A DNA stretch of 64,000 bases from an uncultured delta proteobacterium (lineage in GTDB: Bacteria > Myxococcota_A > Polyangia > Polyangiales > Polyangiaceae): the NCBI GenBank assembly GCA_963782055.1, contig CAWAIF010000002.1, positions 96,001 through 160,000 of the forward strand. The letters are read 5' to 3'. A program made the position numbers and the translations under genes. Of the stretch, positions 11,401 through 36,486 are shown piece after piece. The stretch's first letter is position 1; each line of letters begins with the position of its first letter. The notes beneath the pieces were generated by a model. The model ran no database searches and was not told the origin of the DNA. It saw nothing but the letters and a program-made list of their open reading frames with translations.

Positions 11401-12148
11401 CATGCATCGTGACCGCGCGCCCCTCCCTGTCGGAGTCGAAGTCGCGGTACTTGCCGTCGTCGATGGCCAGCGTGCCATCGAACCACACGCGCACCGCGCC
11501 GGAGCTGCCGACCCAGAGCGTCGCGCGGCGGCTCCGCCCGGCGGCCAGCTTCGGATCGCGCACCAGGGTGGTCGCGTAGACGCACACGTTCTCGGTCGGG
11601 CGCACGAGCGCGCCGGTGTCGACCCAGCCGTAGGGCGAGCGGCCCGGCGAGACGCGCCACTTCACCTTCCGCTCCTTGCCCTCGTACGTCTTCGTGAAGA
11701 TCGCGCCGTCGGCGGCGGTCTCCGGCTGGAAGGCGCGGGTGAGCCCCGTCTTGCCCTCGTTGTCGAAGGACCCGACGATCGCCCACTTGCCGACGTAGCC
11801 GAGCGCGGCGATGCGCGACCGGGCGCCGTCCAGGTCCCCGCGGCGGCGGCGGGCGTAGGCCTGCAGGAGCTCGGCGTAGACGCGCGTGGCCCCGCGGCGG
11901 GCGTGGGCGATGGCGTCCAGCGACGCCTCCACCTCAGCCGGGTCCCCCCGGTCCCACTGCAGCCAGACGCGCCGCATGGCCGCGTAGGACTGGGCGTCGG
12001 GGGCCCGCTCCGCCTCGGCCGTGAGGCGAGCCAGGCGGGGGAGGTGATCGCCCACGTCGGCCCGGGCGGGGCTGACGCCGGCGGCGGTAGCGACGAGGAC
12101 GACGGCCGCGATCAGACCGAGAGGTGCGCGCACGGCACGCAGTCTCAT
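8402..12148 (-). CDS. TPR + DUF3857 + transglutaminase-like domain protein
   Basis: Signal peptide, TPRs, FPRLSAGDVVELDY, and Cys-His-Asp triad motifs GDCKDKA / FDHAIAYV / YLDGT. Confidence 0.85.
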   Translation of the reverse strand: MRLRAVRAPLGLIAAVVLVATAAGVSPARADVGDHLPRLARLTAEAERAPDAQSYAAMRRVWLQWDRGDPAEVEASLDAIAHARRGATRVYAELLQAYARRRRGDLDGARSRIAALGYVGKWAIVGSFDNEGKTGLTRAFQPETAADGAIFTKTYEGKERKVKWRVSPGRSPYGWVDTGALVRPTENVCVYATTLVRDPKLAAGRSRRATLWVGSSGAVRVWFDGTLAIDDGKYRDFDSDREGRAVTMHAGYNRILVKVCGSGSAPVFALRVGAADGSPDPSVEADVEAAHFADAQATWASKAPLPAGGVLGPLAALEKAARGAGTGKKDATGAEAYGGSPATLEADAEYLVLTQSDDESDHLARDLATRAATKAPTVRRLLLAAQLVEGRNQSAEWIAKAEALVKKGGVSSEDRIHTLLARAAHERSGTNWRDAVPYYDRVLAIDPDNVAAVLARVELYGEANLRATALTFLRHALARRPRSVALVRAMVDSLRQEDRTTEADEMEDRYAQLRFDDSTFLQGRIDLAVARRDTQAAQRWIDRLVATDPDGTDKLVSAAQAYVTLGNRARAVALYKLALQHAPEDVDTMTGLADLYALGGEQGEQVALLKKVLALRPQDKDVREHLAHLEPSKPRPDEAYALPSKTFLAWRGAPAAGRDRRTLVDLTVTTVFPNGLSSKFHQVVFQPLTDRAAQSSRVYAFAYETDSQAVQLRGVHVYRKSGEVDDTFDSSVGGADDPSIATYTSSATYRVQFPRLSAGDVVELDYRVEDVAQRNAFADYFGDVGYLQSDEPLHHAEYVLLTPKTRTFYFNQPKVPGLHKTVQDKGDTRVYRFVAENVPPIEPEPNQPPYTELLGHVHVSTYKSWDEMGAWYWGLVKDQFTADDEVRRRVAMVTKGKKTDIEKVRAIYDYVVQKTRYVALEFGIHGFKPYRCAQIFARGYGDCKDKATLIVTMLQEAGIPATIVIVRTGLRGDFEDYPASLAPFDHAIAYVPSLDMYLDGTAEYTGSTELPAMDRGALALQVNQGKPKLVHLPQPPASASVVSRSIVATLAPDGSAQLDWSGSVTGAAAASWRVRYHADATRKDRVQEDLGSDLSGLAVQSVQANDLEDVETPPSLKVRGKVAAFARKDGTSLSVPVGPSEHMVRDFASLSTRKLDLRFHARTTSETDYVVKLPPGAKVLSSPSPSSSTSPFGSHHVTVETVPGGVHVHTTVVFSKMRIPVAEYPAFRAWCEQVDKGLGQRLLVGGAK

Positions 12149-13311: not shown

Positions 13312-14094
13312 TCAGAGCACCAGGACCCAGACGTCGTAGAGGGCGTGGGCCCACACGGCGGCCGCGAAGCCGCGGAATGCGTAGATGAGGCTCAGGAAGA
13401 CGCCGAGCACCATCCGGAAGATGAAGGTCTGGAGCTGGAAGGGATCCCCCAGCGGGCCGATGTAGTGGACGGCGCTGAAGACGGCGGCGGAGACGAGTCC
13501 CCAGGCGACGGTGATCATCGCCGACTTGAAGGTGAAGCCGGAGCCCTTGGCCACGCTGACCTTCTGCCGCGTGAGCAGCCACACCAGGAGCTTGCTGCCC
13601 AGGCCGAAGAGCAGGACCCGGTAGGTCACCTCCTCGTAGAAGCCGGCGCCCATCGACATGATGAAGCCCGGGAAGCCGCCGAGGGTGATCTTGCCCGCGA
13701 AGAGGGAGCCCACGACGTACGCCCCGCCCAGCCGCATGAGCAGCGCGTAGACCACCCCCTCCAGCGCGATCTGCAGGAACTTGCGCGCGCGGAAGGCCTG
13801 CCCGCGTCCGAGCCAGGTGAAGATGCCGGCCAGGACCACGCCGATCGCCGCGGTGAAGATCAGGTAGAGCGCGCGGCTGCCCTCGGCGAGCTGCAGCACC
13901 AGCCCCGTCACCACGTCGGAGGCGTTCTGCACGTTCAAGAAGACGACGCCGAGCTGGTAGGCGAGAAAGACGGGGAGCGTCAGTCCCAGGTCCACCCACG
14001 GCCCCGGCCGCGCCGTCAGCTTGCTCCCGGCGGGAGGGCTGGCCTTCGGCGCGCGGCCTGCGGCGGGCGAGAGCGCGGGCGCGTCGTCGGTCAT
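13312..14094 (-). CDS. CPBP (Abi/CAAX) family intramembrane metalloprotease
   Basis: EEVTYR, FSAVH and HALYD motifs in a multi-TM protein. Confidence 0.85.
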   Translation of the reverse strand: MTDDAPALSPAAGRAPKASPPAGSKLTARPGPWVDLGLTLPVFLAYQLGVVFLNVQNASDVVTGLVLQLAEGSRALYLIFTAAIGVVLAGIFTWLGRGQAFRARKFLQIALEGVVYALLMRLGGAYVVGSLFAGKITLGGFPGFIMSMGAGFYEEVTYRVLLFGLGSKLLVWLLTRQKVSVAKGSGFTFKSAMITVAWGLVSAAVFSAVHYIGPLGDPFQLQTFIFRMVLGVFLSLIYAFRGFAAAVWAHALYDVWVLVL

Positions 14095-20384: not shown

Positions 20385-22199
20385 TCAGAGCGCGACGACC
20401 TGATCCTGCGGGACGAGGATCATCGCGCTCTGCGCGGGCACCTGCACGGTGAGCGAGCCGTCGCTCGCGACGGTGTAGGTGGCCTGGTTGGGATCCAGCA
20501 CGTCCACCAGCACCGTCCCCGGCGCCGCGGTGAGCTTCAAGGGCGTGGTGCCGTCGGTCGTCGAGCTGGTCTTTCTGCCGTTGGTGTTCAGCACGACGAG
20601 CGCGTACTGGCTGCCCGCGTCCCCGCCGGTGCGCTCGAAGGCGAAGATGCCCGCGTCCCCCTCGCTGCCGGTGTGCGCGGTGGCGTAGACCACGTTGGTG
20701 TCGCCGCGGCGCAGCGCGAGGTACGCCTTGCGGATGCGCGTCAGCTTGGCGACGTGGCGGAAGGTGTCGCCCGTCGTGTCGAATCCGGTGTTCCAGAGCA
20801 CCTCGCGGTTCGCCGGGTCGTTGCCGCCGGAGAAGTCCTGCTCGGTGCCGTAGTAGATGCAGGGGATGCCGTCCTCGGTCAGCAGCAAGGTGAGCGCGTT
20901 GCGCAGCGCCGCCTTGTCGCCCTGCGCGTCGAAGAGGAAGCGCGCGACGTCGTGGTTGTCGAGGAAGTTCACCAGCGCCTTGGTGGGCGGGATGCCGATG
21001 CCGCCGTCCTGCGGCGTGGTGCCGTAGTTCTGCGGGCGCGACTCCCAGAGCGCCTTGATCTGGTCGGTGCCCTTCTGCGCGCTCGGGTCGTGCGCGTTCT
21101 CGAAGACGTCCTGGAAGACCTGGTAGTGCTGCGAGAAGTAAAAGACGCTGTCGAGCTCGCCCGGCACCGTGTAGCTGCCGAGGAGCTGGTCGTTGCCGTC
21201 GAAGGCCTCGCCGAACATGAGGAAGTTGTTCTTCCCCTCCGCCGCGAGGCGCTGGCGCACGCCCTTGGTGAAGACCTGCCAGAACTCGTGCTCGACGTGC
21301 TTCACCGTGTCGATGCGGAAGCCGTCGAAGTCCGCCAGCTCCACCCAGCGCGAGTACGCGTCGATCATGAGCTGCCGCACCTCCGGCAGCTCGGTCGCCA
21401 CGTCCTTCAGGCCGCCGGGGAAGTCGCCGAGGGTGCGCTGCTTCGGGTCGTCGTAGTTCAGGATGCGGCCGAAGCCGTGGTACGCGCGCGCCGTGCCGAG
21501 CAGGCCGGGCGGGGGCACGCGGTTGATCGACGGCATGTTCAGGAAGATGATCGGCGCGCGCCCGGCGGGGCCCGCCGAGGAGAAGGACTGCACGCCCTCC
21601 GGGTTCCAGTCCGGGTCGTACTCGCTGATGCGCGTGACGGGCGAGGTGGAGCCGGTGCCGCCGATGTACTCGTCCGGCTGCCCGTTGCGGTTGATGTCGT
21701 AATAAAAGAGCTGCCCCATGTGGTTGGTGACGATGTCCAGCACCACCTTCATGCCGCGCTCGTGCGCCGCGGCGACGAGGCTGCGGAGGCTGGCGATGTC
21801 GCCGAAGTGGGGGTTGGGCTGGTAGAGGTCCTGCGACCAGTAGCCGTGGTAGGAGTCGACGCCGGCGTCGGTATCCACGTTCTTCACGACGGGGGAGATC
21901 CACATCGTGGTGACGCCGAGCGCCTGCAGGTAGCCCAGGTGCTCCTCGAGGCCCTTCCAGTCGCCGCCCTGGAAGCGCGCGAGGTGGCCGGGCTGCACCG
22001 TCCAGTCGTTGTTCAGGTCGCCGTCGGCGAAGCGGTCGACGAGGACCTGGTAGATGACCTCGTCGCGCCAGTCGTCCACGTGGGTGGCGAGCTGCGCGGG
22101 CTTGCCGGTGTCGGGGAGGCCGACGCACGCCGTCTCGGGGAGCGCGGCGCTCGCGATGGCGAGCGCGGTCAGAATCCCGCGTACGAGCCCTAGACGCAT
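20385..22199 (-). CDS. GH13 alpha-amylase family protein (probable lipoprotein)
   Basis: Catalytic regions DGFRIDTVKH, GEAF and FLDNHD; YHGYW; N-terminal signal ending in Cys. Confidence 0.92.
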   Translation of the reverse strand: MRLGLVRGILTALAIASAALPETACVGLPDTGKPAQLATHVDDWRDEVIYQVLVDRFADGDLNNDWTVQPGHLARFQGGDWKGLEEHLGYLQALGVTTMWISPVVKNVDTDAGVDSYHGYWSQDLYQPNPHFGDIASLRSLVAAAHERGMKVVLDIVTNHMGQLFYYDINRNGQPDEYIGGTGSTSPVTRISEYDPDWNPEGVQSFSSAGPAGRAPIIFLNMPSINRVPPPGLLGTARAYHGFGRILNYDDPKQRTLGDFPGGLKDVATELPEVRQLMIDAYSRWVELADFDGFRIDTVKHVEHEFWQVFTKGVRQRLAAEGKNNFLMFGEAFDGNDQLLGSYTVPGELDSVFYFSQHYQVFQDVFENAHDPSAQKGTDQIKALWESRPQNYGTTPQDGGIGIPPTKALVNFLDNHDVARFLFDAQGDKAALRNALTLLLTEDGIPCIYYGTEQDFSGGNDPANREVLWNTGFDTTGDTFRHVAKLTRIRKAYLALRRGDTNVVYATAHTGSEGDAGIFAFERTGGDAGSQYALVVLNTNGRKTSSTTDGTTPLKLTAAPGTVLVDVLDPNQATYTVASDGSLTVQVPAQSAMILVPQDQVVAL

Positions 22200-22218: not shown

Positions 22219-23787
22219 TCACGGGTACGACGACGAGTTGAACCACCACTCCACCTGCAACCCCAGGTAGTGCTCCACGTCGCGCTGCGAGCGCACGTCG
22301 CTCGCGGGGTAGAGCTCGCGCGCGCCGTCGTCGGGCACGCTGAGCGCGTAGACCACGCGGAACTGCGGGCGCTTGTAGGATCCGCGGCCGCTGGGGGAGA
22401 AGTAGGGGAGCAGGGCGAAGCGCCACATGGATGCGACGAGCGGGCCCTGGCCGCCGCTCGCCGGGTCGGGGAAGGCGTAGCGGCGCGCCTGGTAGCTCGC
22501 CTCGCCGGCGACGCCGAAGTAGTTGCCCAGGAAGAGCTCCGGGCGCAGCACCAGCGTCCCCTCGTCGTAGCGCTGCAGGGAGGTGGGAGACTGGCTGCCG
22601 TCGCTGAAGTAGCGCAGGTAGCCGCCGGCCAGCAGGCCGAAGGCGCCCGTCTCCCAGTTGCCGCTCACCGCGAAGAGGGCCTCCTGCGCGTCGCCGGTGG
22701 TGCGGTCGTTGGCGAAGGTGGTGGGCGCCTCCAGCGTGTCGTACGCCGCGAGCCCGTGCGCGTAGCGCAGGAACATGTTGACGTAGGTGTCTCGCTGGCC
22801 GGTCCAGAAGCCCACCTGCGCCCCCACCAGGAAGCCGGTGTCGGAGGGGAGGCCGACGTCCTGGTTGCTGACCGGGTCGCGGTAGACGCCCGCGCCGATC
22901 TCGTGCGCCTCGCCGTAGAGCGCAGCCTTCATCCCCGCCTTCGGGTCGTGGAGGAGCCGCCCGTTCTGGAAGAGCTGCAGCACCTTCAGCGACTCGACCA
23001 TGCGCGGGCGGTCGAGCGACTCCACCCCCACCGAGCCGATGCCGAAGGGCGCCACGTCCTGCGTCGTCTGGTGCTGGTAGGGATCGTCCAGGCGCTGCAT
23101 GCCGACGTGCAGCGCCACGCTGGTGCCCGTCTTCTGGAAGGTGTACCCGCCGCCGCCACCGATGGTGTTCTGGTTGTCCAGCGGCCACCAGTCGAGCAGG
23201 TAGATGTCGTCGCCGCGGTACATGCGCGAGCCGATCCAGACGACGGCGTTCTTGTAGCGCGCCTGCGCGTACAGGTTGCGGACGAGGATCCCCTGCTCGG
23301 GGTGGCCGGTGAAGTGGAAGAAGGGCCCGGCGAAGGCCACCGTGGCGACCACGCGGGAGTCGATGTCGCCGGAGAAGGTGTCCTCGCGGCGCAGCTCCAG
23401 CTCGGCGTAGCTCTCCTCGTCGATGCGGGTGCCGTGCGACACCACGTTGATGGGCTGGGCGATGCGCCCCTCCAGGTCGCTGGCGATGCCCACGCGCCCG
23501 TAGGAGCCGAACTCGAAGTGGCCGGTGTGCGCCTGGCGCGCGGCGGGCGCGGCGCCGGGGGCGCGGGCGAGCCCCGGGTTGGTGGTCCCGCCGGCCGTGG
23601 CGTCGGGAGGTGCGTCGGTGCCGGCGGCGGGCGCGGGAGGCGTCGCCGGAGGCGGTGTGGCCGCCGCCGCGGTCGCCGACGCGCTCGGCGCGCTCGGCGC
23701 AGGAGGCGCGCCGGACTGCGCCGCCGCCGTGGCGCTCGCCAGCAGCAGCGCCGCCGCGGCGCAGGTCGTTCGGAGGGTTCGCATCAT
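22219..23787 (-). CDS. LamB/maltoporin-like carbohydrate porin
   Basis: Signal peptide; GSYGRVG..ESYAELEL, WIGSRMYRGDDIYLLDWW and terminal GLQVEWWF parallel LamB motifs; flanked by amylases. Confidence 0.8.
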   Translation of the reverse strand: MMRTLRTTCAAAALLLASATAAAQSGAPPAPSAPSASATAAAATPPPATPPAPAAGTDAPPDATAGGTTNPGLARAPGAAPAARQAHTGHFEFGSYGRVGIASDLEGRIAQPINVVSHGTRIDEESYAELELRREDTFSGDIDSRVVATVAFAGPFFHFTGHPEQGILVRNLYAQARYKNAVVWIGSRMYRGDDIYLLDWWPLDNQNTIGGGGGYTFQKTGTSVALHVGMQRLDDPYQHQTTQDVAPFGIGSVGVESLDRPRMVESLKVLQLFQNGRLLHDPKAGMKAALYGEAHEIGAGVYRDPVSNQDVGLPSDTGFLVGAQVGFWTGQRDTYVNMFLRYAHGLAAYDTLEAPTTFANDRTTGDAQEALFAVSGNWETGAFGLLAGGYLRYFSDGSQSPTSLQRYDEGTLVLRPELFLGNYFGVAGEASYQARRYAFPDPASGGQGPLVASMWRFALLPYFSPSGRGSYKRPQFRVVYALSVPDDGARELYPASDVRSQRDVEHYLGLQVEWWFNSSSYP

Positions 23788-23791
23788 CGGG

Positions 23792-26700
23792 TCAGGGCGC
23801 GAGGATCGCCGCGCCGCGCGCCCCCAGCGTGAGGGAGATCGCGCCGCCGGAGACCACGACGTCGGGGCCGCCGAGCTTGTCTTTCAAGTGCGTCCCGTCT
23901 GCAAGGAAAAGCGTGACGGGCAGCGCGGTGGCGAGCGACTGCGGACCGTCGGTGTCGTTGATGGCGACCAGCGCCACGTCGCTCCCCGCCTGCCGCGCGA
24001 AGACGAGCACCTGGTCGGAGGCGTAGACGTGGCGATAGGCGCCGCGGCGCAGGGCGACCAGATCGCGCCGCGCCTCGCCCACCTTGCGGGTGAAGTCCAG
24101 CGTCGCCTGCTCGTCGGCGGAGAGGGTCTGCTCTCCGCGCCACATGTGGCGGTTGTTGGGGTCCGCCCCGCCCCACTCGCCGTACTCGTCGCCGTAGTAG
24201 AGCATCGGCGCGCCGGGCTGGGTGAGCAGCCAGGCGAGCGCCTCGCGGTGACGCGCGTACGGCTCAGCGTCGCCCGGCGCCTGCGCCACGTTCGTCCACT
24301 GGTTGCCCGGGATGCCCATGTCGTGCGCCTGGTCCTGTCCGCGGTAGTCCGCGAGCGTGACGTCGCGCGCGGTGTCCTGGCTGCCGATGTACGGCGACAT
24401 GATGGCGCCCTGCGGGTACTCCCACCCGCTCGCCTGCGCCCAGTAGTCGGCGTGGATCATCCCCTTCTGCCCGTAGTCGAACACCCGGTACGAGACGGCG
24501 TGATAGAGGACGAAGTCGAACTGGCCGTCCAGCTGGTACGGGCCGATGTAGCGCGAGATGGTGTCGTACTGGTCCTGGTTGCAGGCGAGACCGCAGTCGC
24601 TCCAGCCCATCGCCGTCTCGCCCGTCAAGAAGAACTTGGTGCCGCTCGCCTCGAACTCGTGACGCAGGCGGGTGCTCACGTTCATGACGGCGGCGTCCTG
24701 CAGGTGCTTGACCGCGTCGATGCGGTAGCCGTCCAGGTCGTAGGTGCTGGCCCACCAGACGGCGTCGTCGGTCCACTGCGCGCTCACCTCCGGCTTGGTC
24801 CAGTCGACGCGGGGCAGGTACGAGGCGAAGACGCAGTCCAGCCGGTGCGTCGTCCAGTCGCAGTTGTTGGTGCCGCACACGCAGCCCTGGATGAACCAGT
24901 CGGGGTGCGCCTTCACGTACTCGTGGTCCTTGTGCACGTCCCCGAGCATCAGGTCCATGATCACGCGGATGCCGTGCTCGTGCGCCGTCTTCACCATCGC
25001 CTTCAGGCCGGCGTCGCCGCCCAGGCGCGGGTCCACCTCCCGGGCCTTGATGGGCCAGTAGCCGTGGTAGCCGGTCACCTGGGTGACGCCGTCGGCGGCG
25101 GGGAAGGCGTCGGGCGTCGCGGTGTAGAAGGGCGTGAGCCAGATGGCGCGCACGCCCAGCTTGTCGAGGTCCCCGGCGGCGATGGCCTGCTGCACGCCCT
25201 CCAGGTCGCCGTTCTGGAAGTTGGCGCGCACGTCGACGCCCTGCACGGGCGGCACGTCGTTGGAGGTGTCGCCGTTCTTGAAGCGGTCGGTCACCGCCAT
25301 GTAGATGAGCGCGTCGTGCCAGTCGAAGGTCTCCGCCTCGACCCAGAAGACCAGGCGCAGGGTGGGCGCGGCGCGGCCCAGGCGGTCCTTCGCGTCGACG
25401 AACAGCGTGTACTTGCCGTCGGCGAGGTTCTGCAGGTCGAAGGCGATGGTGTCGCCCACGGCGTCCACCTGCGCCGGGGCGTCGCCGTCGGCGAAGTCCT
25501 TGCGGAGGGTGCCCTTCACGGTGGCGGGGTCGACGCCGGTCTGCGCCCAGCCGGGGAGGAAGTCGACGGTCGCCTGGTAGCGCCCCTGCCCCGGTGCTTG
25601 ACGGGTCAACGAATGCGTCTTCAGCGCGAGGGAAGGCGCGTAGCAGTCGGTCACCTGCACCGACGAGTTCTCCGTTCCGCCGACGAACTTGCGCGTCGTC
25701 GACGCCGGGTCGAACTGCCAGTTGCCGTCGACGACGAGCTTGTAGGCGTACAGGCCGGGTGACAGCGGGACCTTCGCGGTGAAGGCGCCGCTCCCGTCCG
25801 GGCCGGTCATCACCGCGCCGGGGGACTGGAATCCGTCCCACTCCCCGGCGACCGAGACGCTCTTGGGGATGGTCCCCGCGGCGGGGACGTAGCGGAAGGT
25901 GGTGGTGCACGCGCCGGCGTCCACGTCGACGGGCGGCGGCAGCGGTACGTCGGCACCGGCGTCGATCGGCGTCTGCCCGTCGCCGCCGGCGTCCGCGCCC
26001 GGGGGTGTGTCGGGGTTGCTGGAGCAGCCGAAGAGCGCGAGGGAGACGGCCGCGGTCGCCGCGACAATCCCGGCGCGCCGGCGCGCGCGGCGCAGGACGA
26101 GCAGCACACCGAGGAGCAGGATGGCGAGGGCGCCGGAGGGGGAGGCCGCGCCGGTCCCGATGGAGCAGCCGCCGTCGTTGCCGGGAGGGGTCGACGCGCC
26201 CGCGTCGGCGCCGCCGCCCGCGTCATCCATCGGGCCGGCGTCGCCCGCGTCGGGCGTCGCGGCGTCGGCGCCGGCGTCGCCCGGCTCGTCCGGCTCTGCG
26301 GCGAACGCGCCGCAGCTCGGCGTCACCGGCTCGCCGCGGTCCAGCAAGGACAGGAGGTACGCGCCCGCGCCGAAGCCGACCATCGGCGCCTCACCGGCGT
26401 AGTCGGCGGTGACGCGGTCGTGCAGCTCGGAGAAGAGGCCGAAGTTCTCGGCGGCCTGGTCCACGTTCCACGCCAGGCCGTCGGTCGCCGCCTGCGTGGC
26501 GCCGGTGAGCTCCAGCGCGTGGCCCGCGCGCAGGTCGACGAAGACCCACTCCTGCGAGTCGTACCAGCCGCCGGAGTCGTTGCGCATGAAGCCGCGGCCG
26601 CTCGGGGGCACGAGGCCCGCCTGCATCGCGTGGACGGTCGCCCTCGCGGTGTGCTTGGCGGGGTCGAAGAGGCCGAAGTTGATCGCCTCCACGGCCGCGG

Positions 26701-28384
26701 CGTCCAGCCACGCCTTGTCGGCGGCGAGCGACTCGGTCGCCTGCCCGATGGTGCCGTCCGGCGCGCGGAGCAACCCGAGGATGGCGTCGCGAGCCTTCTC
26801 GCCGGCCGTGAGGTACTTCGCCGAGTCGGCCGCGTCGTTCATCTGCGTGGCGAGCCCGGCGGCGGCGCACAGGCCGCGCGCGGCGGTGATGGTGGTGTAG
26901 GCGAAGTGCTTCTGCTGCCCGTTCCAGTGCACCTCCCAGATGCTGGAGTCCGGCGCGATGAGCCCGCTCGGCTCCTGCAGGCCCGCGAGCACGTCGGCGA
27001 CCTTGGACTGCACGGTGGGCCACCAGGCGGTGAGCGCCGCGGTGTCGTTGGACGCTTGCACGTACTCCGCGAGCTCCCACAAGAAGAGGCCGAAGCCGTC
27101 GAACTCGACGTTGGGGCCGTCCTGGTTGGTGTCGCTCTCCTCGGTGCCGTCGCCGTAGTAGCGCACGACCGAGATCTGGTACGGGGCGCCGACGTACGAC
27201 TCGTAGCCGCCGACCGTCGCCTTCATCTGGAAGTCGATGGCGCGCTTCGCCTCCGCCAGGTGTCCGCTGCGCGCGAGCGCGACGGTGGCGTAGGCCATGT
27301 CGCGCACCCAGGCGATGTTCCACTTGCCGGGGGCGATGCTGGCGAGGATCTGCCCGTCGCTCTTGTCCCCGGCGGCGACCTGCGCCATCCGCAGCACCGC
27401 CTGCGCCTGGGCGGCGTCGGCGGCCTCCACGGCCGTCGTGCCCTGCGGCGCGGGCTTCTGCCACGCGCTCCACGCGGCGATCTCGTCGGCGAGGATCTTG
27501 TCCGGCGCGCGCCCGGCGATCCAGGTGCGCACGCGGTCGACCGCGGCCTGCGCGTCGGCGTCGGCGGCGAGCACCGAGAACCACCCGGCGTACGCAGTGG
27601 CGTTCTGCGCGATGTCCCCCAGGCTGGACTGGAAGCCGCACACCGCGTCGTTGGTGGGGCTGCCCGGGCCCGCGTCGTCGGCGAGGTTCTGTCCGTTGAC
27701 GAGGCGCGTGTACGGGTTGTTCGGCGTCGCCCCGTGGTGCGTGGACGCCGCGATGCTCGCGTGCCCGAAGGCGACGCCGCTCGGCCCCCACTCGTAGTAG
27801 GCGTCGCGCCCGGCGTTGTACGCCATGCCCTCCGCGGTGGAGCTGGGCGCGGGGCTGCCGCTGCCCAGGTGGTAGTTCATGAGCGTGTACGCGTCGATCG
27901 CGCCGGAGCCGCTCTGCCGCGTCACCTTCAGCACGGTGAAGGCGGCGTTCTCCGCGAGGCCCATCGGCGCGAAGTCGAACTCCTCCACGGTGAGGCCCTG
28001 CCAGGAGCGCACCACGTGGATGATCCCGGTGCCCGGCACGTACTCGATCTTGCTCGGCGTGATGGTGTTCAGCCACGCGCCGGTGGTGCCCACGCGCAGG
28101 CCGGGGTACGCGTCGTAGAGGAAGTTGCGCGACTCCACCCCCGCGCTCGGGTACCGGTAGGGGTGCTCCAAGAACTGCGTCAGCTTGAAGGCGTTCGTGT
28201 CGAAGGCGATCGCCGCGCGGCCGTTGGAGGACGGGAGGGCGCCGATGGAGCGGTGAGGCTCGGCGGCCCGCGCCGTGGAGGTGGTCAGGAGGGCGAGCAC
28301 CGCGCCGAGGAGGAGCAGGCGCGCCCGGAAAGACAGGACCCAGAGCTTCGATACGGCCACCACGCCTCCTCCCGGAAGAGCCAT
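23792..28384 (-). CDS. Multidomain glucanase: GH15-like (glucoamylase-type) domain, internal MYXO-CTERM + lipobox, CBM48-like domain, GH13 domain
   Basis: GH15-like WVRD and DSSIWE; CBM48-like VAGEWDG..YAYKLVVDGNW; GH13 DGYRIDAVKH, GET and SQD. Start codon uncertain within about 30 nt. Confidence 0.85.
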   Translation of the reverse strand: MALPGGGVVAVSKLWVLSFRARLLLLGAVLALLTTSTARAAEPHRSIGALPSSNGRAAIAFDTNAFKLTQFLEHPYRYPSAGVESRNFLYDAYPGLRVGTTGAWLNTITPSKIEYVPGTGIIHVVRSWQGLTVEEFDFAPMGLAENAAFTVLKVTRQSGSGAIDAYTLMNYHLGSGSPAPSSTAEGMAYNAGRDAYYEWGPSGVAFGHASIAASTHHGATPNNPYTRLVNGQNLADDAGPGSPTNDAVCGFQSSLGDIAQNATAYAGWFSVLAADADAQAAVDRVRTWIAGRAPDKILADEIAAWSAWQKPAPQGTTAVEAADAAQAQAVLRMAQVAAGDKSDGQILASIAPGKWNIAWVRDMAYATVALARSGHLAEAKRAIDFQMKATVGGYESYVGAPYQISVVRYYGDGTEESDTNQDGPNVEFDGFGLFLWELAEYVQASNDTAALTAWWPTVQSKVADVLAGLQEPSGLIAPDSSIWEVHWNGQQKHFAYTTITAARGLCAAAGLATQMNDAADSAKYLTAGEKARDAILGLLRAPDGTIGQATESLAADKAWLDAAAVEAINFGLFDPAKHTARATVHAMQAGLVPPSGRGFMRNDSGGWYDSQEWVFVDLRAGHALELTGATQAATDGLAWNVDQAAENFGLFSELHDRVTADYAGEAPMVGFGAGAYLLSLLDRGEPVTPSCGAFAAEPDEPGDAGADAATPDAGDAGPMDDAGGGADAGASTPPGNDGGCSIGTGAASPSGALAILLLGVLLVLRRARRRAGIVAATAAVSLALFGCSSNPDTPPGADAGGDGQTPIDAGADVPLPPPVDVDAGACTTTFRYVPAAGTIPKSVSVAGEWDGFQSPGAVMTGPDGSGAFTAKVPLSPGLYAYKLVVDGNWQFDPASTTRKFVGGTENSSVQVTDCYAPSLALKTHSLTRQAPGQGRYQATVDFLPGWAQTGVDPATVKGTLRKDFADGDAPAQVDAVGDTIAFDLQNLADGKYTLFVDAKDRLGRAAPTLRLVFWVEAETFDWHDALIYMAVTDRFKNGDTSNDVPPVQGVDVRANFQNGDLEGVQQAIAAGDLDKLGVRAIWLTPFYTATPDAFPAADGVTQVTGYHGYWPIKAREVDPRLGGDAGLKAMVKTAHEHGIRVIMDLMLGDVHKDHEYVKAHPDWFIQGCVCGTNNCDWTTHRLDCVFASYLPRVDWTKPEVSAQWTDDAVWWASTYDLDGYRIDAVKHLQDAAVMNVSTRLRHEFEASGTKFFLTGETAMGWSDCGLACNQDQYDTISRYIGPYQLDGQFDFVLYHAVSYRVFDYGQKGMIHADYWAQASGWEYPQGAIMSPYIGSQDTARDVTLADYRGQDQAHDMGIPGNQWTNVAQAPGDAEPYARHREALAWLLTQPGAPMLYYGDEYGEWGGADPNNRHMWRGEQTLSADEQATLDFTRKVGEARRDLVALRRGAYRHVYASDQVLVFARQAGSDVALVAINDTDGPQSLATALPVTLFLADGTHLKDKLGGPDVVVSGGAISLTLGARGAAILAP

Positions 28385-28491: not shown

Positions 28492-30255
28492 CTAGCGGAA
28501 GGGACCGGCGCCGGCCAGGCCCCGTTTCGCGCGCAGGAGCCGGGCGATCGCCTCCAGCCGGGGGCGCAGCGTCTCGGGGTCGGGCGTGGGCTCGGGGACC
28601 AGGTAGCCCGCCTCCTCCCGGCGCACGTGGAGGTGGACGGCCTCCTCCAGCTCCTGGAGGAGCTCGCGGGTGGCGGGCGAGAGGGTGGGATCGTCCGGGC
28701 TGAGGTCCTGCTCGAGGGGCGGGTCGATGGGGAAGCTGACCAGCGTCCCCATCAGGGTGCCGTTCGGCTGCCAGACCGTGCCCACGTCGAAGCGGTCGAC
28801 CCCCAGCGCGCCGCCGTGCACCCACATGCGGCCGGCCTCGAAGTGGCCGCCCACCCGCTCGGCGAAGGCGCGCCACGCCCCCGCGTCCTCGGCCATCGCC
28901 GCGGGGGGAGGCACCCGCGCCACCGCCTGCGCGAGCGCCTCCAGCAGGGCCACGGCCTCCGTCGCCAGCTTCTCCAGGCTGGCGGTGGACCCTGGCGAGC
29001 CGCTGAAGGTGACGACGGCGCCGTCGTCGTCCATGGTCACCGAGGCGCCGCGCACGAGCCGGTCCAGCAGGTCGTCGTCGAAGAAGGCCTCGATCTGCGC
29101 CGCCTCCCGGCCGCGGATGGTGAAGCGGTCCCCCGCCTTCCCCGGCGCCGCCCAGGTGCGCCCCAGCACGTCGGTCCAGCGCTTCTCGCCGACGTGCAGG
29201 TCCAGCCCGAGGTGCGGCCACGCGTAGCGCGCGGCGGTGGCCAGCGCGCCCTCCCGCAGCTCTCGCCCGAGCTGCAGCTTCACCTCGCCCCGCTCGGCGT
29301 GAAGTGAGCCCCTGCCGGGGTCGAACTCCAGCTCCAGCCGCTCGCCCACCTGCGACCAGATGCGTGCCATCCGGTCGCGCCCCACCGGCCACACGCGCCC
29401 GGAGGGCTTCTTGCGCGTCGCGCCGGGAGGGGGCCGCAGCACCTTGAGGGGGATGCTCACCACCAGGTCGCGCCCGAGCACCACGTCGGCGCGCACCTCC
29501 ACCCGCCAGTCGAAGCCGAAGAAGCTCGCGCGGAAGGTGGGCGGCGCCTCCGCCGGCATCGTCACGCGGAAGCGCAGCGGCTCCCCCTCCGGCGGCGGCC
29601 CGGAGACGACGAGCGCGCGGTAAAAGCGCGTGTCGTACGCGCCCAACGTCGGCTTGAAGATGCGCTCCGTCCCGACGAAGGTCACGTACACCGCGCGGAT
29701 GCGCGCCGCGTGCACGTTGTTGAAGGAGACGGCGCCGGTGAGCGCGTCGCCTGGCGCGAGCTGCGTCGTGTCCACCGACACCTCGGCGTAGACGGCGCCC
29801 GGCTGGGGGCCCTTCGGCGAGCTGGCGACCAGCACCGGCGCGGTCGGCTCGGGGAGGGCGAAGGTCGGCGCCACCGAGAGGGTGAAGCTGGTGTGCCTGT
29901 CCGGCCACCACGGGATGTCCACGTGCACGTCCACCGTGTACGTCGACTGCGCGTGCTGCCCGGTGAAGGTGGGCGGCGACCCGGCGGGCACCGAGAAGCG
30001 GAAGCGCCGCTTGTACTCCCCCACGCCAAGCTCCCCCGGAGTCCAGCGCTGCGGCAGGCGAAGCCACGGGCGGTGGAGGACCTGCATCCCTCGACCGTCC
30101 CCCACCACGGTGCGCTCGCTCGCGGAGAAGACGAGGTCGACGAAGCGGGTCGGCGTCGCCGACCGGCTCCCCAGCACCACGATGAGCTCGAACGGCTCCC
30201 CGGCGACGAGCGGCTTCTTCGACACGAGGAGCCTCACCGTCGGCCGACTGCGCAT
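28492..30255 (-). CDS. Protein with two arrestin/SpoOM-like beta-sandwich repeats
   Basis: Two repeats: FRFSVPAGSPPTF..YTVDVHVDIPW and FRVTMPAEAPPTF..WRVEVRADV. Confidence 0.55.
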   Translation of the reverse strand: MRSRPTVRLLVSKKPLVAGEPFELIVVLGSRSATPTRFVDLVFSASERTVVGDGRGMQVLHRPWLRLPQRWTPGELGVGEYKRRFRFSVPAGSPPTFTGQHAQSTYTVDVHVDIPWWPDRHTSFTLSVAPTFALPEPTAPVLVASSPKGPQPGAVYAEVSVDTTQLAPGDALTGAVSFNNVHAARIRAVYVTFVGTERIFKPTLGAYDTRFYRALVVSGPPPEGEPLRFRVTMPAEAPPTFRASFFGFDWRVEVRADVVLGRDLVVSIPLKVLRPPPGATRKKPSGRVWPVGRDRMARIWSQVGERLELEFDPGRGSLHAERGEVKLQLGRELREGALATAARYAWPHLGLDLHVGEKRWTDVLGRTWAAPGKAGDRFTIRGREAAQIEAFFDDDLLDRLVRGASVTMDDDGAVVTFSGSPGSTASLEKLATEAVALLEALAQAVARVPPPAAMAEDAGAWRAFAERVGGHFEAGRMWVHGGALGVDRFDVGTVWQPNGTLMGTLVSFPIDPPLEQDLSPDDPTLSPATRELLQELEEAVHLHVRREEAGYLVPEPTPDPETLRPRLEAIARLLRAKRGLAGAGPFR

Positions 30256-30383
30256 CGCGCCGAGCATACCCCAGCGCGTCCGGCCCCGAACCGCCGCGGC
30301 CCCAGGGCCGATACGCACGGCTGGGTCCGGTCGTTGAGGTCTGGCGCGGCGGCTCGTCCCGCGCTAACACCCCCGCCGGACCC

Positions 30384-31721: not shown

Positions 31722-33725
31722 TCAGGGCTTGGCGTAGATGCGGACCTGGCGGGCGGGGATGGTGACAGTGGGGCCCGTCGTCGGCGTGCCCGTGATGAGC
31801 TCGTTCAGCGCCTGCGACGGGAGGCCGCCGAGGGTCTTGTCGCTGTCGCCGCGGTTGATGGCGACCCACACCTGATCCTTCGGTGTCACCACGGTGAAGA
31901 GCCAGTGGTCGGCGCTGGAGCTGATGGTGGTGCGCAGGCCGTGGCGGATGGACTCGTGCGCGGCGCGGATGGCGAGCAGCGCCTTCACCCGGTCGTGCAG
32001 GTACTGCTGGCCGGCGCTGTAGCCGCTCCACTGCATGAAGCGGCGGTTGTCTGGGTCGCCGGCGCCGGGCATGCCCCACTCGTCGCCGTAGTAGATGAGC
32101 GGCGCGCCGTGGTTGGTGAGCATCACCGCGAAGGCGTTGGCGAGCTTCTCGTACGCCTTCTGCTGCGTCACGATGCCCGGCTGGTTCTGCCACGCCAGGT
32201 TCTTGCCGTCGGAGCCCTGGTCGGTCCAGAGCGGGGGCTCCTGCGCGAGGTGGATGACGCGCGGCAGGTCGTGGTTGCCGAGGAAGGGGCTCATCACCGC
32301 CGTCGAGCCGTAGAAGTAGTCGTTGGAGTCGTAGAAGCTCGCGAGCTGGTCCATGCCCTGGTACTTGAGCAGCATCGTCTCGACGAGCATGCGCCGCGCG
32401 GGGAAGTCGAACTGGCCGTCCAGCTTGGTCTTCGGGTCGACGAAGGACTTGATGTAGTCGCGGTTGAAGAAGTCGTACGTCTCCCCGACCATGTAGAAGC
32501 GCTGCGGCGGGCTCTCCTTCGCCACGACCTCGGTCTGGATGTCGCTGCGGAGCTGCAGCAGCCAGCTCTGGTCGACGTGCTTGATGGCGTCCAGCCGGAA
32601 GCCGTCGGCGCCGGTGTCGGTGATCCACTTGACCGCGTTGTTGACCGAGTAGTCGCGCGCGGCGGGCACGGTGTAGTTCCAGTGCGGGAGGTAGCTGGTG
32701 AACCAGCAGCGGTCCGCCTGCGCGTCCCAGCTGCAGTTCTGCCCGCAGATGCAGTCGCCGCCGTTGTAGGAGTTGGGCCAGAACCAGCCGGGGTTCTGCT
32801 GGTAGATGGGGCTGTCGATCTCGACGTGGACCATCGCGTAGTCGAAGAGCACCTTCAGGTTCTTCGCGTGGGCGGCGGTGACCAGGTTCTTCAGGTCCTG
32901 CAGCGTGCCGAACCGCGGCTCCGGCTGCGAGGGGTCGTAGGGCCAGTAGCCGTGGTAGGCGGAGTACAGGTGCGAGTCGCCGCCGGTGCCCTGCCCGGCG
33001 AAGGTGTCGGCGTTCTTCACCGGCACGGTGATCCAGAGGGTGTTGACGCCCAGGTCGGTGAAGTACCCGGCGTTGATCTTCTGGGTGACGCCCTTCCAGT
33101 CGCCGCCCTGGTACTGCGCGGGCGGCAGCACGCCGCCGAGGGGGGAGCCGTTGTTGCTGGGGTCGCCGTCGAAGAAGCGGTCGACGAAGACGAAGTAGAT
33201 GACCGCGTCGCGCCAGTCGTAGACGCCCGCCGGCGGGGAGGGCGGCTCCTCGCAGATGGCCGGGTTGCAGGTGACCGGCTGCAGCAGGTTGTTGGTGTTG
33301 TTGTTCTGGTCGGTGGTGGTGGGGTCGCCCGGGTTGACCAGCCACTGCGTGCCGTTGACGAGGAACTTGTACTGGACCGCCGTGTTCAGCGGCACGTTCA
33401 CCGTGACGGTCCAGGAGCTTCCCTGGTGCGTCATCGGGTCGCCGTTCTGCCAGGAGTCGGCGCCGCGGTAGTCGCCCCGCAGCTCCACGCTCGACTCGTT
33501 GTTGAACGGGAAGGTGAACGCGTGCGCGCAGCGCTTCAGCTCGTCGGGGCAGACGAAGCCCAGCGAGGTGCCCGCGTCGTAGCTGCCGCCGTTGTTGCTG
33601 CCGGGGTCGAAGAGGGCGGCGTCCGGCGGGTCGCCGTAGTCCGGGTTGTGAACCGCGTCGCTGCCGCACGCGGCGGTGAAGGCGAGCCCGCCCAGGATCA
33701 GCGGGAGTGCTACGGCGAGGCGCAT
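31722..33725 (-). CDS. GH13 alpha-amylase lipoprotein with N-terminal CBM48-like domain
   Basis: Lipobox-like TAAC; YKFLVNG; DGFRLDAIKH, GETY and FLGNHD. Confidence 0.92.
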   Translation of the reverse strand: MRLAVALPLILGGLAFTAACGSDAVHNPDYGDPPDAALFDPGSNNGGSYDAGTSLGFVCPDELKRCAHAFTFPFNNESSVELRGDYRGADSWQNGDPMTHQGSSWTVTVNVPLNTAVQYKFLVNGTQWLVNPGDPTTTDQNNNTNNLLQPVTCNPAICEEPPSPPAGVYDWRDAVIYFVFVDRFFDGDPSNNGSPLGGVLPPAQYQGGDWKGVTQKINAGYFTDLGVNTLWITVPVKNADTFAGQGTGGDSHLYSAYHGYWPYDPSQPEPRFGTLQDLKNLVTAAHAKNLKVLFDYAMVHVEIDSPIYQQNPGWFWPNSYNGGDCICGQNCSWDAQADRCWFTSYLPHWNYTVPAARDYSVNNAVKWITDTGADGFRLDAIKHVDQSWLLQLRSDIQTEVVAKESPPQRFYMVGETYDFFNRDYIKSFVDPKTKLDGQFDFPARRMLVETMLLKYQGMDQLASFYDSNDYFYGSTAVMSPFLGNHDLPRVIHLAQEPPLWTDQGSDGKNLAWQNQPGIVTQQKAYEKLANAFAVMLTNHGAPLIYYGDEWGMPGAGDPDNRRFMQWSGYSAGQQYLHDRVKALLAIRAAHESIRHGLRTTISSSADHWLFTVVTPKDQVWVAINRGDSDKTLGGLPSQALNELITGTPTTGPTVTIPARQVRIYAKP

Positions 33726-35851
33726 GGATCACCCTTCGGCAGAAAGACGCGGACCGAGAATGGACGAGCGTCCAGATTTGTCAACTCAGGGTTGAGTGAC
33801 GCTTCCTCCCCGGACAGCGCGTCCACGTACTCACCCGCGGGCACGCCGGGCAGCGCCTCGATCATCGGCGCGAGGCCCGCGCGCATGGCCACGACGATCG
33901 CCGGGGCCGCGCCGTCCGCCTCTCGGGCGAAGGCGAGGGTCTCTCCGCCGACGACGAGGGGGCGGTACGTGCCGCGGCGAAGCGACACGGAGCACGCGCG
34001 CACCTTGCCCAGCGCCGCCACGAAGTCGCGCGTCGCCTTCTGGTCGGCGGTGAGCGTGTCGTCCGCGGGGAGCACCCGTCGCGAGTCGGGATCGTGCCGG
34101 CCGGCGAGGCCCACCTCGTCGCCGTAGTAGACGACCGGGACGCCCGGGAGGGTGAAGACCATCCCGAGCGCCATGCGCTGCCGCGCGTAGACGCCCGGGT
34201 CGGTGGGCTGCGGGGCGGGGGTGAAGCCGCTCCCGTCCGCGCTGCCGTCGCTCTCCGAGGCGAAGCGCGTCACGTCGTGGTTGCCGATCATCAGGGCCAT
34301 GATCGCGCCGGCGCCCTTCCACGTCTGCTCGCCGGTCTGCACGGCCAGATCGATGTCGGAGAGGGGCTCGGTCTCGTCGGCGATGGCGCCGCGCAGCGTC
34401 CACATGAGCGGGAAGTGAAACTCGCCGTCCAGGCCGGAGGGCCCGAGCTGGTAGCGCAGCTCGTCGTAGCCGCCGGGGCCGGTGAAGTTCTCGCCGAGGA
34501 CGTAGGTGCGGTTGCCGGGGTGGTCGAAGCGGCGCCGCAGCTCCGCGACGATGCGCCGGGTGGCGGCGCGCGGCATCATGGGCACGGCGTCGATGCGGAT
34601 GCCGTCGCCGTCGAACCGGTCGATCCACCACGCGACGTCCGCGGTCACCGTCTGCGCCACGTCGTCGCGCGTCCAGTCGAAGCTGGGCAGGTAGGGCGCG
34701 AACCAGCAGTCGGTGAGGTGCGTGCCCCAGTCGCAGGTGGCGGTGCCGCAGACGCAGTCCTTGCCCCAGTCGGTGAACCAGGCGCCGTCGGCGTGCGCCG
34801 CGACGTACGGGTGCTCCTGGTGGACGTGGTGCGGCACCACGTCGAAGAGGATGCGGATGCCGCGGGCGTGCGCGGCGGACACCAGCGCGTCCAGGTCCGC
34901 CTCGGTGCCGAAGCGCGGGTCGAGCGCGCGCGAGGCGGTGGGCCAGTAGCCGTGGTAGGCGGAGTACATGTGGCCGTCGGTGCCCGGAAACTCGCCCTGC
35001 GGGTTCTGGTAGAGCGGCGAGAGCCACAGGGTGTTGAAGCCCATCGCGGCGAACTTGCCGCTCTGGACATCCGCGAGCACGCCGGAGAGGGTGCCTCCCG
35101 CCCAGCCCGCGGGATCCGCCGGGGGCGGGAGGGCCTCGCCGCCCGGCCCGCGGTAGCGGTCCACCATCACCTGGTAGATGGACGCGTCGCGCCAGTCGAA
35201 GGGCGAAGCCTCCTCCCACACGGTGACGCGGCCGGGCTCCGCGTCCTTCCCCGAGGCATCGCGTGCCGCAACGAAAAGCGTGTGCTTGCCGGGCGCGAGA
35301 CCGTGCGCGGTGACGCTCACCGTGCCCTTCGCCGGGTCCGTCGCCACGTCCACCGTCGCGCTCGAGCCCCCGAGCTCCGTCACCCGCACGCTCGCCGGGT
35401 CGAGGGGGGACGCCGACGCGGCGGCGAGGAAGGTGAGCGAGGCCTCCGCGGTGCCGTCGGCGTGACCGGCCGCGGCATCGACGCGCAGCGCGGGCGCGGA
35501 GCAGTCGTCCACATGCACCAGCGAGACCTCGATGCCGTCGTGGAATGCGGTGGTGCCCACGTTGGGGTCCGCCATCCACTGCCCGTCCTCCACGATCCCG
35601 TACTCCTGGTCTCCGGGGGGCGGGTCGTAGCGGGTGACGCGCCAGCCGTCGCCGCGGTCGGCGGGGAGGATGCGACCGGGTTGCTTCCAGCCATCCCAGC
35701 TCGTCACCACCTCCACCTGCGCGGCGTTGCTCGCGGCGCGGTGCCACACCGTCACCTCGCACGAGCGCAGCGGGATCGACGGCGCCGGCGCGTCCTGGGT
35801 GCACGCCACGAAGGGGAGCACACCGACCAAGAGCAAGCCAAGCCACCGCAC
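33710..35851 (-). CDS. GH13 alpha-amylase lipoprotein
   Basis: GTG start gives MRWLGLLLVGVLPFVAC; DGIRIDAV, GENF and IGNHD. Confidence 0.88.
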   Translation of the reverse strand: MRWLGLLLVGVLPFVACTQDAPAPSIPLRSCEVTVWHRAASNAAQVEVVTSWDGWKQPGRILPADRGDGWRVTRYDPPPGDQEYGIVEDGQWMADPNVGTTAFHDGIEVSLVHVDDCSAPALRVDAAAGHADGTAEASLTFLAAASASPLDPASVRVTELGGSSATVDVATDPAKGTVSVTAHGLAPGKHTLFVAARDASGKDAEPGRVTVWEEASPFDWRDASIYQVMVDRYRGPGGEALPPPADPAGWAGGTLSGVLADVQSGKFAAMGFNTLWLSPLYQNPQGEFPGTDGHMYSAYHGYWPTASRALDPRFGTEADLDALVSAAHARGIRILFDVVPHHVHQEHPYVAAHADGAWFTDWGKDCVCGTATCDWGTHLTDCWFAPYLPSFDWTRDDVAQTVTADVAWWIDRFDGDGIRIDAVPMMPRAATRRIVAELRRRFDHPGNRTYVLGENFTGPGGYDELRYQLGPSGLDGEFHFPLMWTLRGAIADETEPLSDIDLAVQTGEQTWKGAGAIMALMIGNHDVTRFASESDGSADGSGFTPAPQPTDPGVYARQRMALGMVFTLPGVPVVYYGDEVGLAGRHDPDSRRVLPADDTLTADQKATRDFVAALGKVRACSVSLRRGTYRPLVVGGETLAFAREADGAAPAIVVAMRAGLAPMIEALPGVPAGEYVDALSGEEASLNPELTNLDARPFSVRVFLPKGDPCASP

Positions 35852-35961
35852 GCTGGATCCCTTAGCGCGACCTTCCTTCGGCGCAAACGCTTCCGGCCCA
35901 CGGGGCCCGATGACGCCCCTGGCGAAGTCGCCGGACGCATCGCGCCGGGGCGGCGCCCAGC

Positions 35962-36486
35962 TCAGTGCCTCGTGTCCGGCGGCGCCGTCATCGCGCCTGC
36001 GTCCGCGGGACCCAGGGCCGCCGCGCCTCCGCCCTTCGCGAAGCACATCGCCGCGAGCACGTCCGCTTCCCGCTGCTGGCCGCGTGCGCGGAGCACCTGC
36101 GCGGCACGACACTCCGCCGGATCCGGCTCGCCGTCGCGCTTCGCGGTGAAGGGATCGTAGGGGGTGGTCTGCAGGTCGTGGCGCGCCGTGTTGTCCACGC
36201 TGGCCGTGGCAACCGGAGGCGTCGGTTCGGGCACCGCCCTGTCCGGGTTCTCGCCGACCTTCACAGCCGCGCAGCGCCGGTCGAACCAGTCCAGGTGCTC
36301 GGTCCGGCCAGTCTCGCGCAGCGCGCAGGCCGCCGCGCAATCGGGGATGTCCTCGTGACAGCCCGGCGTCCTCGCGCTCATGGTCCGGATGGGCGCCGCG
36401 GCGGTCGTCGGCTCCGGCTCGTCGCCCGAGCCAGGCGGCTGGCAGGCGGCGATGAGCAGAACGAGGAGTATCGAGGAGCGGGACAT
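35962..36486 (-). CDS. Hypothetical Cys-containing lipoprotein
   Basis: MSRSSILLVLLIAAC lipobox. Confidence 0.6.
   Translation of the reverse strand: MSRSSILLVLLIAACQPPGSGDEPEPTTAAAPIRTMSARTPGCHEDIPDCAAACALRETGRTEHLDWFDRRCAAVKVGENPDRAVPEPTPPVATASVDNTARHDLQTTPYDPFTAKRDGEPDPAECRAAQVLRARGQQREADVLAAMCFAKGGGAAALGPADAGAMTAPPDTRH

Follow-up and report, generated by a model that had tools for sequence, protein, structure and literature searches.

One reading frame for two predicted lipid-anchored glycosidases: a MYXO-CTERM tag read into a lipoprotein signal in a Polyangiaceae gene

Can a single bacterial open reading frame (ORF) give rise to two separately anchored enzymes? The question is raised by a gene in a 64,000-nucleotide stretch of DNA (hereafter the window) from an uncultured delta proteobacterium of the Polyangiaceae, taken from positions 96,001 to 160,000 of contig CAWAIF010000002.1 (assembly GCA_963782055.1). 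The ORF (23792-28384, minus strand) runs for 1530 codons without a stop and joins a GH15-like glycosidase to a CBM48-GH13 glycosidase, through a junction at which an apparent MYXO-CTERM sorting tag leads directly into an apparent lipoprotein signal. From its sequence and that of its relatives, we consider it likely (probability of about 0.7) that the gene encodes one precursor, which is threaded through the inner membrane as a hairpin and cut on both sides of it, leaving two lipid-anchored alpha-glucan hydrolases.

The junction and the two enzymes

A sequence-only reading of the window had described a stop-free, 1530-amino-acid frame in which a linker, a GGC motif, a helix, an Arg cluster, a further segment, Cys787 and a second linker follow one another, and re-reading the sequence returned this order as claimed. 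Its residue numbers, Cys740 and Cys787, hold for an ORF that begins at the ATG at 28384. We rejected this ATG as the true start because its Shine-Dalgarno pairing is weaker (-3.5 kcal/mol) than that of codon 9, a GTG at 28360 (-11.9 kcal/mol). This GTG is the probable start; it gives a protein of 1522 amino acids, in agreement with the length of the database protein P0002, and the two cysteines then become residues 732 and 779. Numbering from the ATG is kept below.

Signal peptides were called by motif rules and by eye. The protein, encoded throughout on the minus strand, opens with a predicted Sec/signal peptidase (SPase) I-type signal (28262-28360), which is basic, then hydrophobic, and ends in A-R-A-A; it was recognized by eye, and homologues look alike. 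The GH15-like glycosidase (residues 42-695; 26300-28261) consists of a beta-rich N-domain and a helical catalytic domain, and is followed by a linker rich in Asp, Ala, Gly and Pro (residues 696-737; 26174-26299) of a kind also present in stand-alone genes. The internal MYXO-CTERM tag (26075-26173) comprises GGC with Cys740 (codon 26167-26165), a spacer, a hydrophobic helix (751-764) and the Arg cluster RRARRR (765-770). Directly behind it, the internal lipoprotein signal (26024-26074) consists of an uncharged segment of 16 residues (771-786) and the lipobox L-F-G-C, ending in Cys787 (codon 26026-26024), so placed that the Arg cluster would double as the basic region of this signal. A second Asp/Ala/Gly/Pro-rich linker (residues 788-826; 25907-26023), also found in stand-alone lipoprotein genes, leads to a CBM48-like glycogen-binding domain (residues 841-912; 25649-25864; PF16561, 35.9 bits, cut-off 26.8) and then to a GH13 catalytic domain (1032-1407) with a C-terminal beta domain (1448-1527), which together span 23804-25291 (PF00128, 102.7 bits; PF22460, 30.3 bits). 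The GC content at third codon positions stays at 0.95 throughout codons 726-800, and the frame does not slip at the junction.

The two signals resemble canonical ones in make-up and differ from them in position. The Cys motif of the MYXO-CTERM model TIGR03901 falls on GGC740, and this Cys is kept by rule in 60 of the 61 fused homologues described below and is visible in the remaining one. Canonical tags lie near the C-terminus; here 761 residues follow the match, so the protein is not a canonical MYXO-CTERM member, and its internal tag likely functions like one. Similarly, the motif rules found the basic region, the hydrophobic region and the small residue before Cys that mark an SPase II lipoprotein signal. 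Such a signal stands at the N-terminus of its product, whereas this Cys is residue 787 and an internal start lacks Shine-Dalgarno support. The ORF departs in position from both families, and it likely works like each.

Both halves match the enzyme families first proposed. Pfam places PF00723 (34.7 bits, cut-off 22) at residues 354-527 of the GH15 half, which has the W-x-R-D and W-E motifs and a helical barrel; W359, R361, D362, W483, E484 and E653 are invariant in 157 of 157 aligned rows, fused and unfused. Its structure model, with a predicted local distance difference test (pLDDT) score of 93, shows a beta N-domain and a helical C-domain. A profile of this half matched glucoamylase 1LF6 and dextran dextrinase 9JU0 in the PDB weakly (E-values of 1e-4 and 1e-13), and a PDB search with the single sequence gave no match. 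For the GH13 half, the profile match to the alpha-amylases 4E2O and 5A2B reached an E-value of 9e-43, and none of the 85 rows (fused, 57; split, 28) deviates from the triad D1223, E1256 and D1337. Catalytic motifs are shared with all four PDB entries, and the relation is distant, so that linkage specificity and products are not assignable from it; the NCBIfam matches shown for the protein all fall under their cut-offs. With Pfam scores over cut-off and both active sites invariant, the assignment of the halves as predicted GH15-like and CBM48-GH13 alpha-glucan hydrolases holds.

Relatives of the fusion and similar junctions elsewhere

We pooled relatives from a whole-length protein search, 151 genomes of the family, 401 genomes of the phylum, and further genome and metagenome loci (the 80 best-scoring of 468 and of 284, respectively). 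Counting duplicates, 197 loci carried a GH15 half: it was fused in 28 of them, had a GH13 gene as a separate neighbour in 83 and no such neighbour in 53, while the other 33 loci broke off near the junction and were dropped. Dropping near-duplicates at 92% identity reduced 207 rows to 157 (50 removed), and this non-redundant set held 61 fused, 50 split and 46 stand-alone sequences, from records titled, for example, Polyangiaceae, Myxococcales and Sandaracinaceae. By these locus and row counts, the fused form is a widespread minority among genomes and no assembly accident. Whether orthologues stay fused or split at this point, as the sequence-only reading had wondered, can thus be answered: both states occur, and the fusion is real, conserved, and repeatedly gained or lost.

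The same elements recur in 60 of the 61 fused homologues, whose GH15 halves are 34-72% identical: a Cys, a spacer of 21-32 residues, a helix, an Arg cluster, a second segment, and a Cys preceded by G or A. Anything from 9 to 92 residues (median 15) separates the Arg cluster from the second Cys while these elements stay, which suggests that the loop is free and both signals are held. Of shuffled junctions, 3.4% satisfy the lipobox rule; when its small-residue condition was removed, G or A still preceded the second Cys in 57 of 58 sequences. The uncharged run of the second segment has a median length of 13 residues in fused (n = 60) and 15 in split sequences (n = 38), so that the segment keeps the length of a signal peptide. 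Leu stands at lipobox position -3 in 31 of 60 fused versus 6 of 38 split sequences; the fused signals look more canonical in this respect, which may be a lineage effect. Two other proteins, P0066 and P0067, have the reverse order, with GH13 first and a GH15-like domain last, joined by an EGF-like, Cys-rich linker; these are ordinary bifunctional fusions that lack a hairpin.

In split pairs, the first gene ends in an ordinary MYXO-CTERM tag and the second begins as an ordinary lipoprotein, the latter in 38 of the 38 pairs tested (12 of the 50 pairs were left out, their second gene being less than 40% identical). The genes overlap by 4 bases in 28 of the 38, an arrangement in which insertion of one base would be enough for fusion, and the Shine-Dalgarno sequence of the second gene often lies in the Arg codons of the tag. 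At split loci such as L127, L129, L147, L150, L185 and L201, the Arg codons CGG-AGG spell the GGAGG Shine-Dalgarno sequence of the gene that overlaps the tag. With a 4-base overlap in place, fusion is an easy step. It is likely tolerated because processing would undo it, and it may be near neutral because translation of the split genes is probably coupled already.

We mapped the two states on FastTree trees, which are unrooted and hence do not separate fusion from fission: the fused label changed 10 times in the GH15 tree (157 rows; at least 8 changes forced by well-supported branches; shuffled mean 48.5) and 7 times in the GH13 tree (85 rows; at least 6 forced). These trees indicate that fused and split states have clearly been exchanged among lineages. 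In the GH15 tree, the clade of the studied gene has 23 of 25 rows fused, and nested within this fused clade on both trees is a split pair, L075, in which the usual overlap is absent and which reads as a later fission. The 1:1 ratio of products that had been proposed for the gene follows from a single ORF. As a demonstrated purpose, fixed stoichiometry was rejected, given that a 4-base overlap exists in split relatives already and that the states flip repeatedly; a selective gain from it is possible.

The layout also occurs beyond this pair of enzymes. Searching the genome with TIGR03901 gave 51 matches, of which the 5 weakest were left out of the check on position. Among the 28 scoring at least 20 bits, 26 are found no more than 11 residues from a stop and the other 2 inside proteins; both internal matches run into a lipoprotein-like signal. 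The second such gene (L031:6116-10336, minus strand, corresponding to G000:C3:2858115-2862335; 23.4 bits) encodes a protein of 1406 amino acids that is unrelated to the GH15-GH13 fusion and has no Pfam family over cut-off; its N-terminus is lipoprotein-like as well, and both ends of its first half may carry an anchor. It has matches in 108 of the 151 family genomes, and 29 of its 30 best-scoring family loci, a ranking that favours fusions, are fused, with one split and provided with a strong start of its own.

A junction profile built from 20 junctions and searched against 1.84 billion representatives returned 253 matches. By rule, the best 150 of these contain 76 internal junctions in 61 proteins. 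A lipobox comes next in 35 of the junctions and a different hydrophobic segment in 41, of which 38 show an [AVS]-x-A motif, although the profile itself favours a second hydrophobic segment, so that 76 of 76 overstates its frequency. The 61 proteins form 25 BLAST clusters, including adhesins, Kelch and FG-GAP proteins, peptidases and a GDSL hydrolase, and 12 of them carry two or three internal junctions. The best 150 also include 82 matches without such an internal junction, which are mostly terminal tags. MYXO-CTERM chains of three or four units were seen in P0106, P0108, P0158 and P0137, and the single ORF of P0158 combines junctions of the SPase I-like and the lipoprotein kind. In the fragments P0171 and P0229, an SPase I-like signal comes after the tag, and the sequence downstream recalls the starts of outer-membrane barrels, which we take to be possibly of the MXAN_5598 type described below.

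Chains also occur with another tag. P0111 (2500 amino acids) has ten PEP motifs, most of them directly followed by an SPase I-like signal, and P0141 has at least five such motifs; these PEP-CTERM chains would follow the same hairpin logic with exosortase. It seems to us reasonably probable that hairpins made of a tail tag (MYXO- or PEP-CTERM) and a signal (SPase I or II) are a general bacterial polyprotein code, by which housekeeping membrane proteases, with no dedicated protease, split an ORF into two to ten separately anchored surface proteins, and which lineages alternate with overlapping genes. If such proteins are cut as predicted, one ORF would not equal one protein for many myxobacterial and PEP-CTERM surface genes, and annotation that seeks tags only at ends and signals only at starts would mislabel them.

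Predicted processing and its alternatives

In the proposed route, the first signal would export the GH15 half. Helix 751-764 would then stop transfer and leave the Arg cluster in the cytoplasm, as is established for MYXO-CTERM proteins, and segment 771-786 would restart export, so that the GH13 half would go out too. Following the lipoprotein pathway, Lgt would lipidate Cys787 and LspA would cut before it; Cys740 would be lipidated, and MrtC would cut after it. With a hairpin of about 45 residues discarded, the same two products would result as from split genes. The GH15 half would reach the surface via type II secretion, as TraA does, and both enzymes would turn starch or glycogen into sugars next to a LamB-like porin encoded beside them.

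The genome encodes an MrtC (NF040594, 277 bits, cut-off 195), computationally assigned as a myxosortase, together with 2 LspA-family and 3 Lgt-family matches. A match to a CPBP/Rce1-like protease in the window (34.6 bits; about 13330-13665, minus strand; L040) was ruled out as a myxosortase by NCBIfam. SPase II cleaves immediately upstream of its Cys (PMC2945643), and the myxosortase is proposed to cut distal to its Cys, at an unmapped site (PMC11980579). The hairpin and the two cuts proposed earlier are consistent with the conservation of the junction, the natural split forms, the lack of an internal ribosome-binding site and the presence of the enzymes; the wording of cleavage at each Cys needs refining. 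Cys-dependent cleavage by MrtX is shown for TraA and MXAN_4924 in the relevant passage of PMC11980579, which offers lipidation as a proposal only.

Several observations, besides the bias of the junction profile, weigh against a precursor cut on both sides. The TIGR03901 match is borderline: the genome scan gave 20.7 bits, against a cut-off of 20, and an excised fragment of 167 amino acids gave 18.9 bits. The internal MYXO-CTERM tag claimed in the sequence-only reading is upheld by the pattern kept in homologues. Segment 771-786 is weakly hydrophobic and Ala-rich. The Phe at lipobox position -2 is atypical and lies outside the textbook lipobox; split orthologues also have F, W, Y and P there. 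Homologue counts are not independent trials, since the sequences are kin, and the 104 proteins of the whole-length search, about half of them full-length fusions, passed a length filter that favours fusions. In a homologue from the same genus (L005/L077), the Arg cluster and the second segment have been lost in frame, leaving a fusion without a hairpin. Its junction, also seen in L033 (about 5100-5180, minus strand), has collapsed to one short hydrophobic segment between both Cys; the gene is also frameshifted within its GH13 part, and the collapse may be due to decay or error, or may be a step towards a fusion that stays uncut. Finally, in the tagging experiments described in PMC11980579, MrtX is shown to accept just a FLAG tag beyond its motif, which falls short of the second helix and about 760 residues found here.

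The hairpin might form and both halves be exported with one cut or none, giving a bifunctional or tethered enzyme in the inner membrane. Some uncut TraA still gets to the surface in an mrtX mutant (in the passage of PMC11980579 on that mutant), so cleavage is not strictly needed; the L005/L077 gene persists as an in-frame fusion without a hairpin, and conservation of the two cysteines might serve lipidation alone or a disulfide. A disulfide, however, would not need the nearly constant G or A before the second Cys, which is what Lgt and LspA read. Nor has the second segment been lengthened to a normal membrane helix, as it has 9-13 uncharged residues in 31 of 60 sequences; the fused clade contains a split pair, and chains of four and ten units are hard to picture uncut. 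We regard this outcome as unlikely, though not negligible. Alternatively, the GH13 lipoprotein might be translated from a start of its own, the ORF then consisting of two genes in the same frame that have lost the stop codon between them. To score such starts, we took the best Shine-Dalgarno pairing before an in-frame ATG, GTG or TTG in the junction, with a threshold of -6 kcal/mol and with L005 left out for want of a lipobox. The threshold was reached in 28 of 38 split junctions versus 2 of 18 fused ones (the fused loci with DNA), the latter close to the background of 10 of 80 internal start codons of the ORF, and 7 of the 18 have none of the three codons in the searched window. The single in-frame junction GTG of the studied gene, 27 codons before Cys787, would give a plausible signal peptide, but its pairing is +1.4 kcal/mol, against the -11.9 kcal/mol at the start of the gene itself. 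Starts that lack a Shine-Dalgarno sequence do occur at this locus, in the LamB-like gene, which speaks for such a start; that start directly follows a stop codon, which an internal one would not. On these values a hidden internal start is disfavoured, and we hold the two-gene explanation to be improbable.

The weakly hydrophobic second segment would also suit a protein in which the MYXO-CTERM tag alone works: MrtC would release the GH15 half, while the GH13 half would stay on the cytoplasmic side or be degraded and the second signal would be a relic. The archaeal protein HVO_0405, discussed below, indicates that a mid-chain tag works, without bearing on re-export. A relic would decay, however, whereas the lipobox is kept in 60 of 61 fused homologues and the GH13 triad in 57 of 57 fused rows across deep divergence, and every split orthologue tested is a lipoprotein; this arrangement appears very improbable. 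We give next to no credence to the idea that the fusion results from misassembly or from a frameshift of one base that very recently joined two genes overlapping by 4 bases. One inserted base would suffice, and the reads gave no useful coverage of the junction: no RNA run was listed, three DNA runs of one study contained 7-19% of the words, as short, low-depth contigs, and no listed piece spans the junction. The artefact is nonetheless contradicted by 61 non-redundant fused sequences from several source collections and by the mostly fused clade of the gene, and we rejected it; the junction has, moreover, lost the start codon and Shine-Dalgarno sequence while retaining its third-position GC of 0.95.

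Should the precursor cut on both sides prove true, a myxosortase would read its motif without a free C-terminus, and Lgt and LspA would act on natural internal signals. The large shift in size, from about 160 kDa to two halves, would suit mapping of the myxosortase cut and of the role of Lgt in lipidation; in the gels described in PMC11980579, the size shift of the MrtX study could barely be resolved. With assayable halves and natural split controls, the GH15-GH13 gene would be the simplest substrate on which to prove the polyprotein code, and the junction could become a building block for the display of two enzymes encoded by a single gene.

Known systems and the surrounding locus

Proteins cut at an internal signal are known from other settings. 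FbcH of Bradyrhizobium japonicum, the cytochrome b-c1 precursor, yields two products from one gene by a cut at an internal signal peptide; unlike the GH15-GH13 fusion, it involves SPase I, respiratory subunits and a single cut, and it is not known to have lipid anchors or a sorting tag. Internalised prolipoprotein signal sequences are said to have been modified and processed in work by Hayashi et al. in 1985, to judge by its title, in constructs that were reportedly engineered and had no upstream exported domain or sorting tag. Another case is HVO_0405 of Haloferax volcanii, whose C-terminal domain is reportedly cytoplasmic. It is a natural fusion of two genes, and its mid-chain cleavage by an archaeosortase was seen in vivo by western blot (in the HVO_0405 results of PMC7157517). 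It differs in that the enzyme is the archaeal ArtA, that one cut is made and that the fusion is described there as strain-specific.

The nearest precedent is MXAN_5598 of Myxococcus xanthus, in which a mid-protein MYXO-CTERM tag is attributed to a probable fusion of two genes; its counterparts traA and traB overlap, and its N-terminal part is proposed to be processed and anchored (the MXAN_5598 passage of Guo, Haft and Wall, mBio 2025, PMC11980579). An internal MYXO-CTERM tag thus has a published precedent; the sequence-only reading had given the C-terminus as its normal place. Likeness to the studied gene lies in the mid-protein tag from a gene fusion and in the overlapping counterparts. MXAN_5598 differs in joining an adhesin to an outer-membrane barrel/OmpA part in place of two enzymes, and the passage on it mentions no second signal peptide or export route for the C-terminal part and gives processing as a proposal only. 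We sought MXAN_5598 beside ftsZ in 3 of the 5 genomes searched and did not find it there. With the MYXO-CTERM/myxosortase system at large (TraA, MXAN_4924, MrtX and MrtC, as presented in sections of PMC11980579 and bioRxiv 10.1101/2023.06.07.544157), the gene shares the Cys motif, helix and Arg cluster, and further an N-terminal signal, many tags per genome (28 here) and a cognate MrtC. The parts and one internal-tag precedent are thus known, while a literature search of mainly openly readable text brought up no paper that describes a sorting tag leading into a second signal peptide. Searching PMC11980579, bioRxiv 2023.06.07.544157, PMC1569441 and PMC3237569 for such terms did not find the tag-then-second-signal layout either.

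The genes around the fusion, all on the minus strand, point to starch or glycogen breakdown in the cell envelope, with the LamB-like porin and three further GH13 genes. The LamB-like porin gene (22219-23787; PF02264, 95.5 bits) starts 4 bases past the stop of the fused ORF, with which it is likely co-transcribed, and a LamB-like gene lies near the GH15 gene in 29 of the 46 relatives that have at least 4.5 kb of downstream sequence. Further downstream is a gene of the GH13 alpha-amylase family (20385-22199; PF00128, 183 bits), with an export signal recognized by eye. Two more CBM48-GH13 genes with lipoprotein-like starts occupy 31722-36340, the second of which probably begins well within its listed ORF. 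A scan for promoters and terminators at the locus did no better than chance. Between these two genes and the fusion, just upstream of the latter, lies a gene for an arrestin-fold protein (28492-30318, minus strand; PF00339 and PF02752), and elsewhere in the window an open frame of 2381 codons extends over 4641-11786 on the minus strand.

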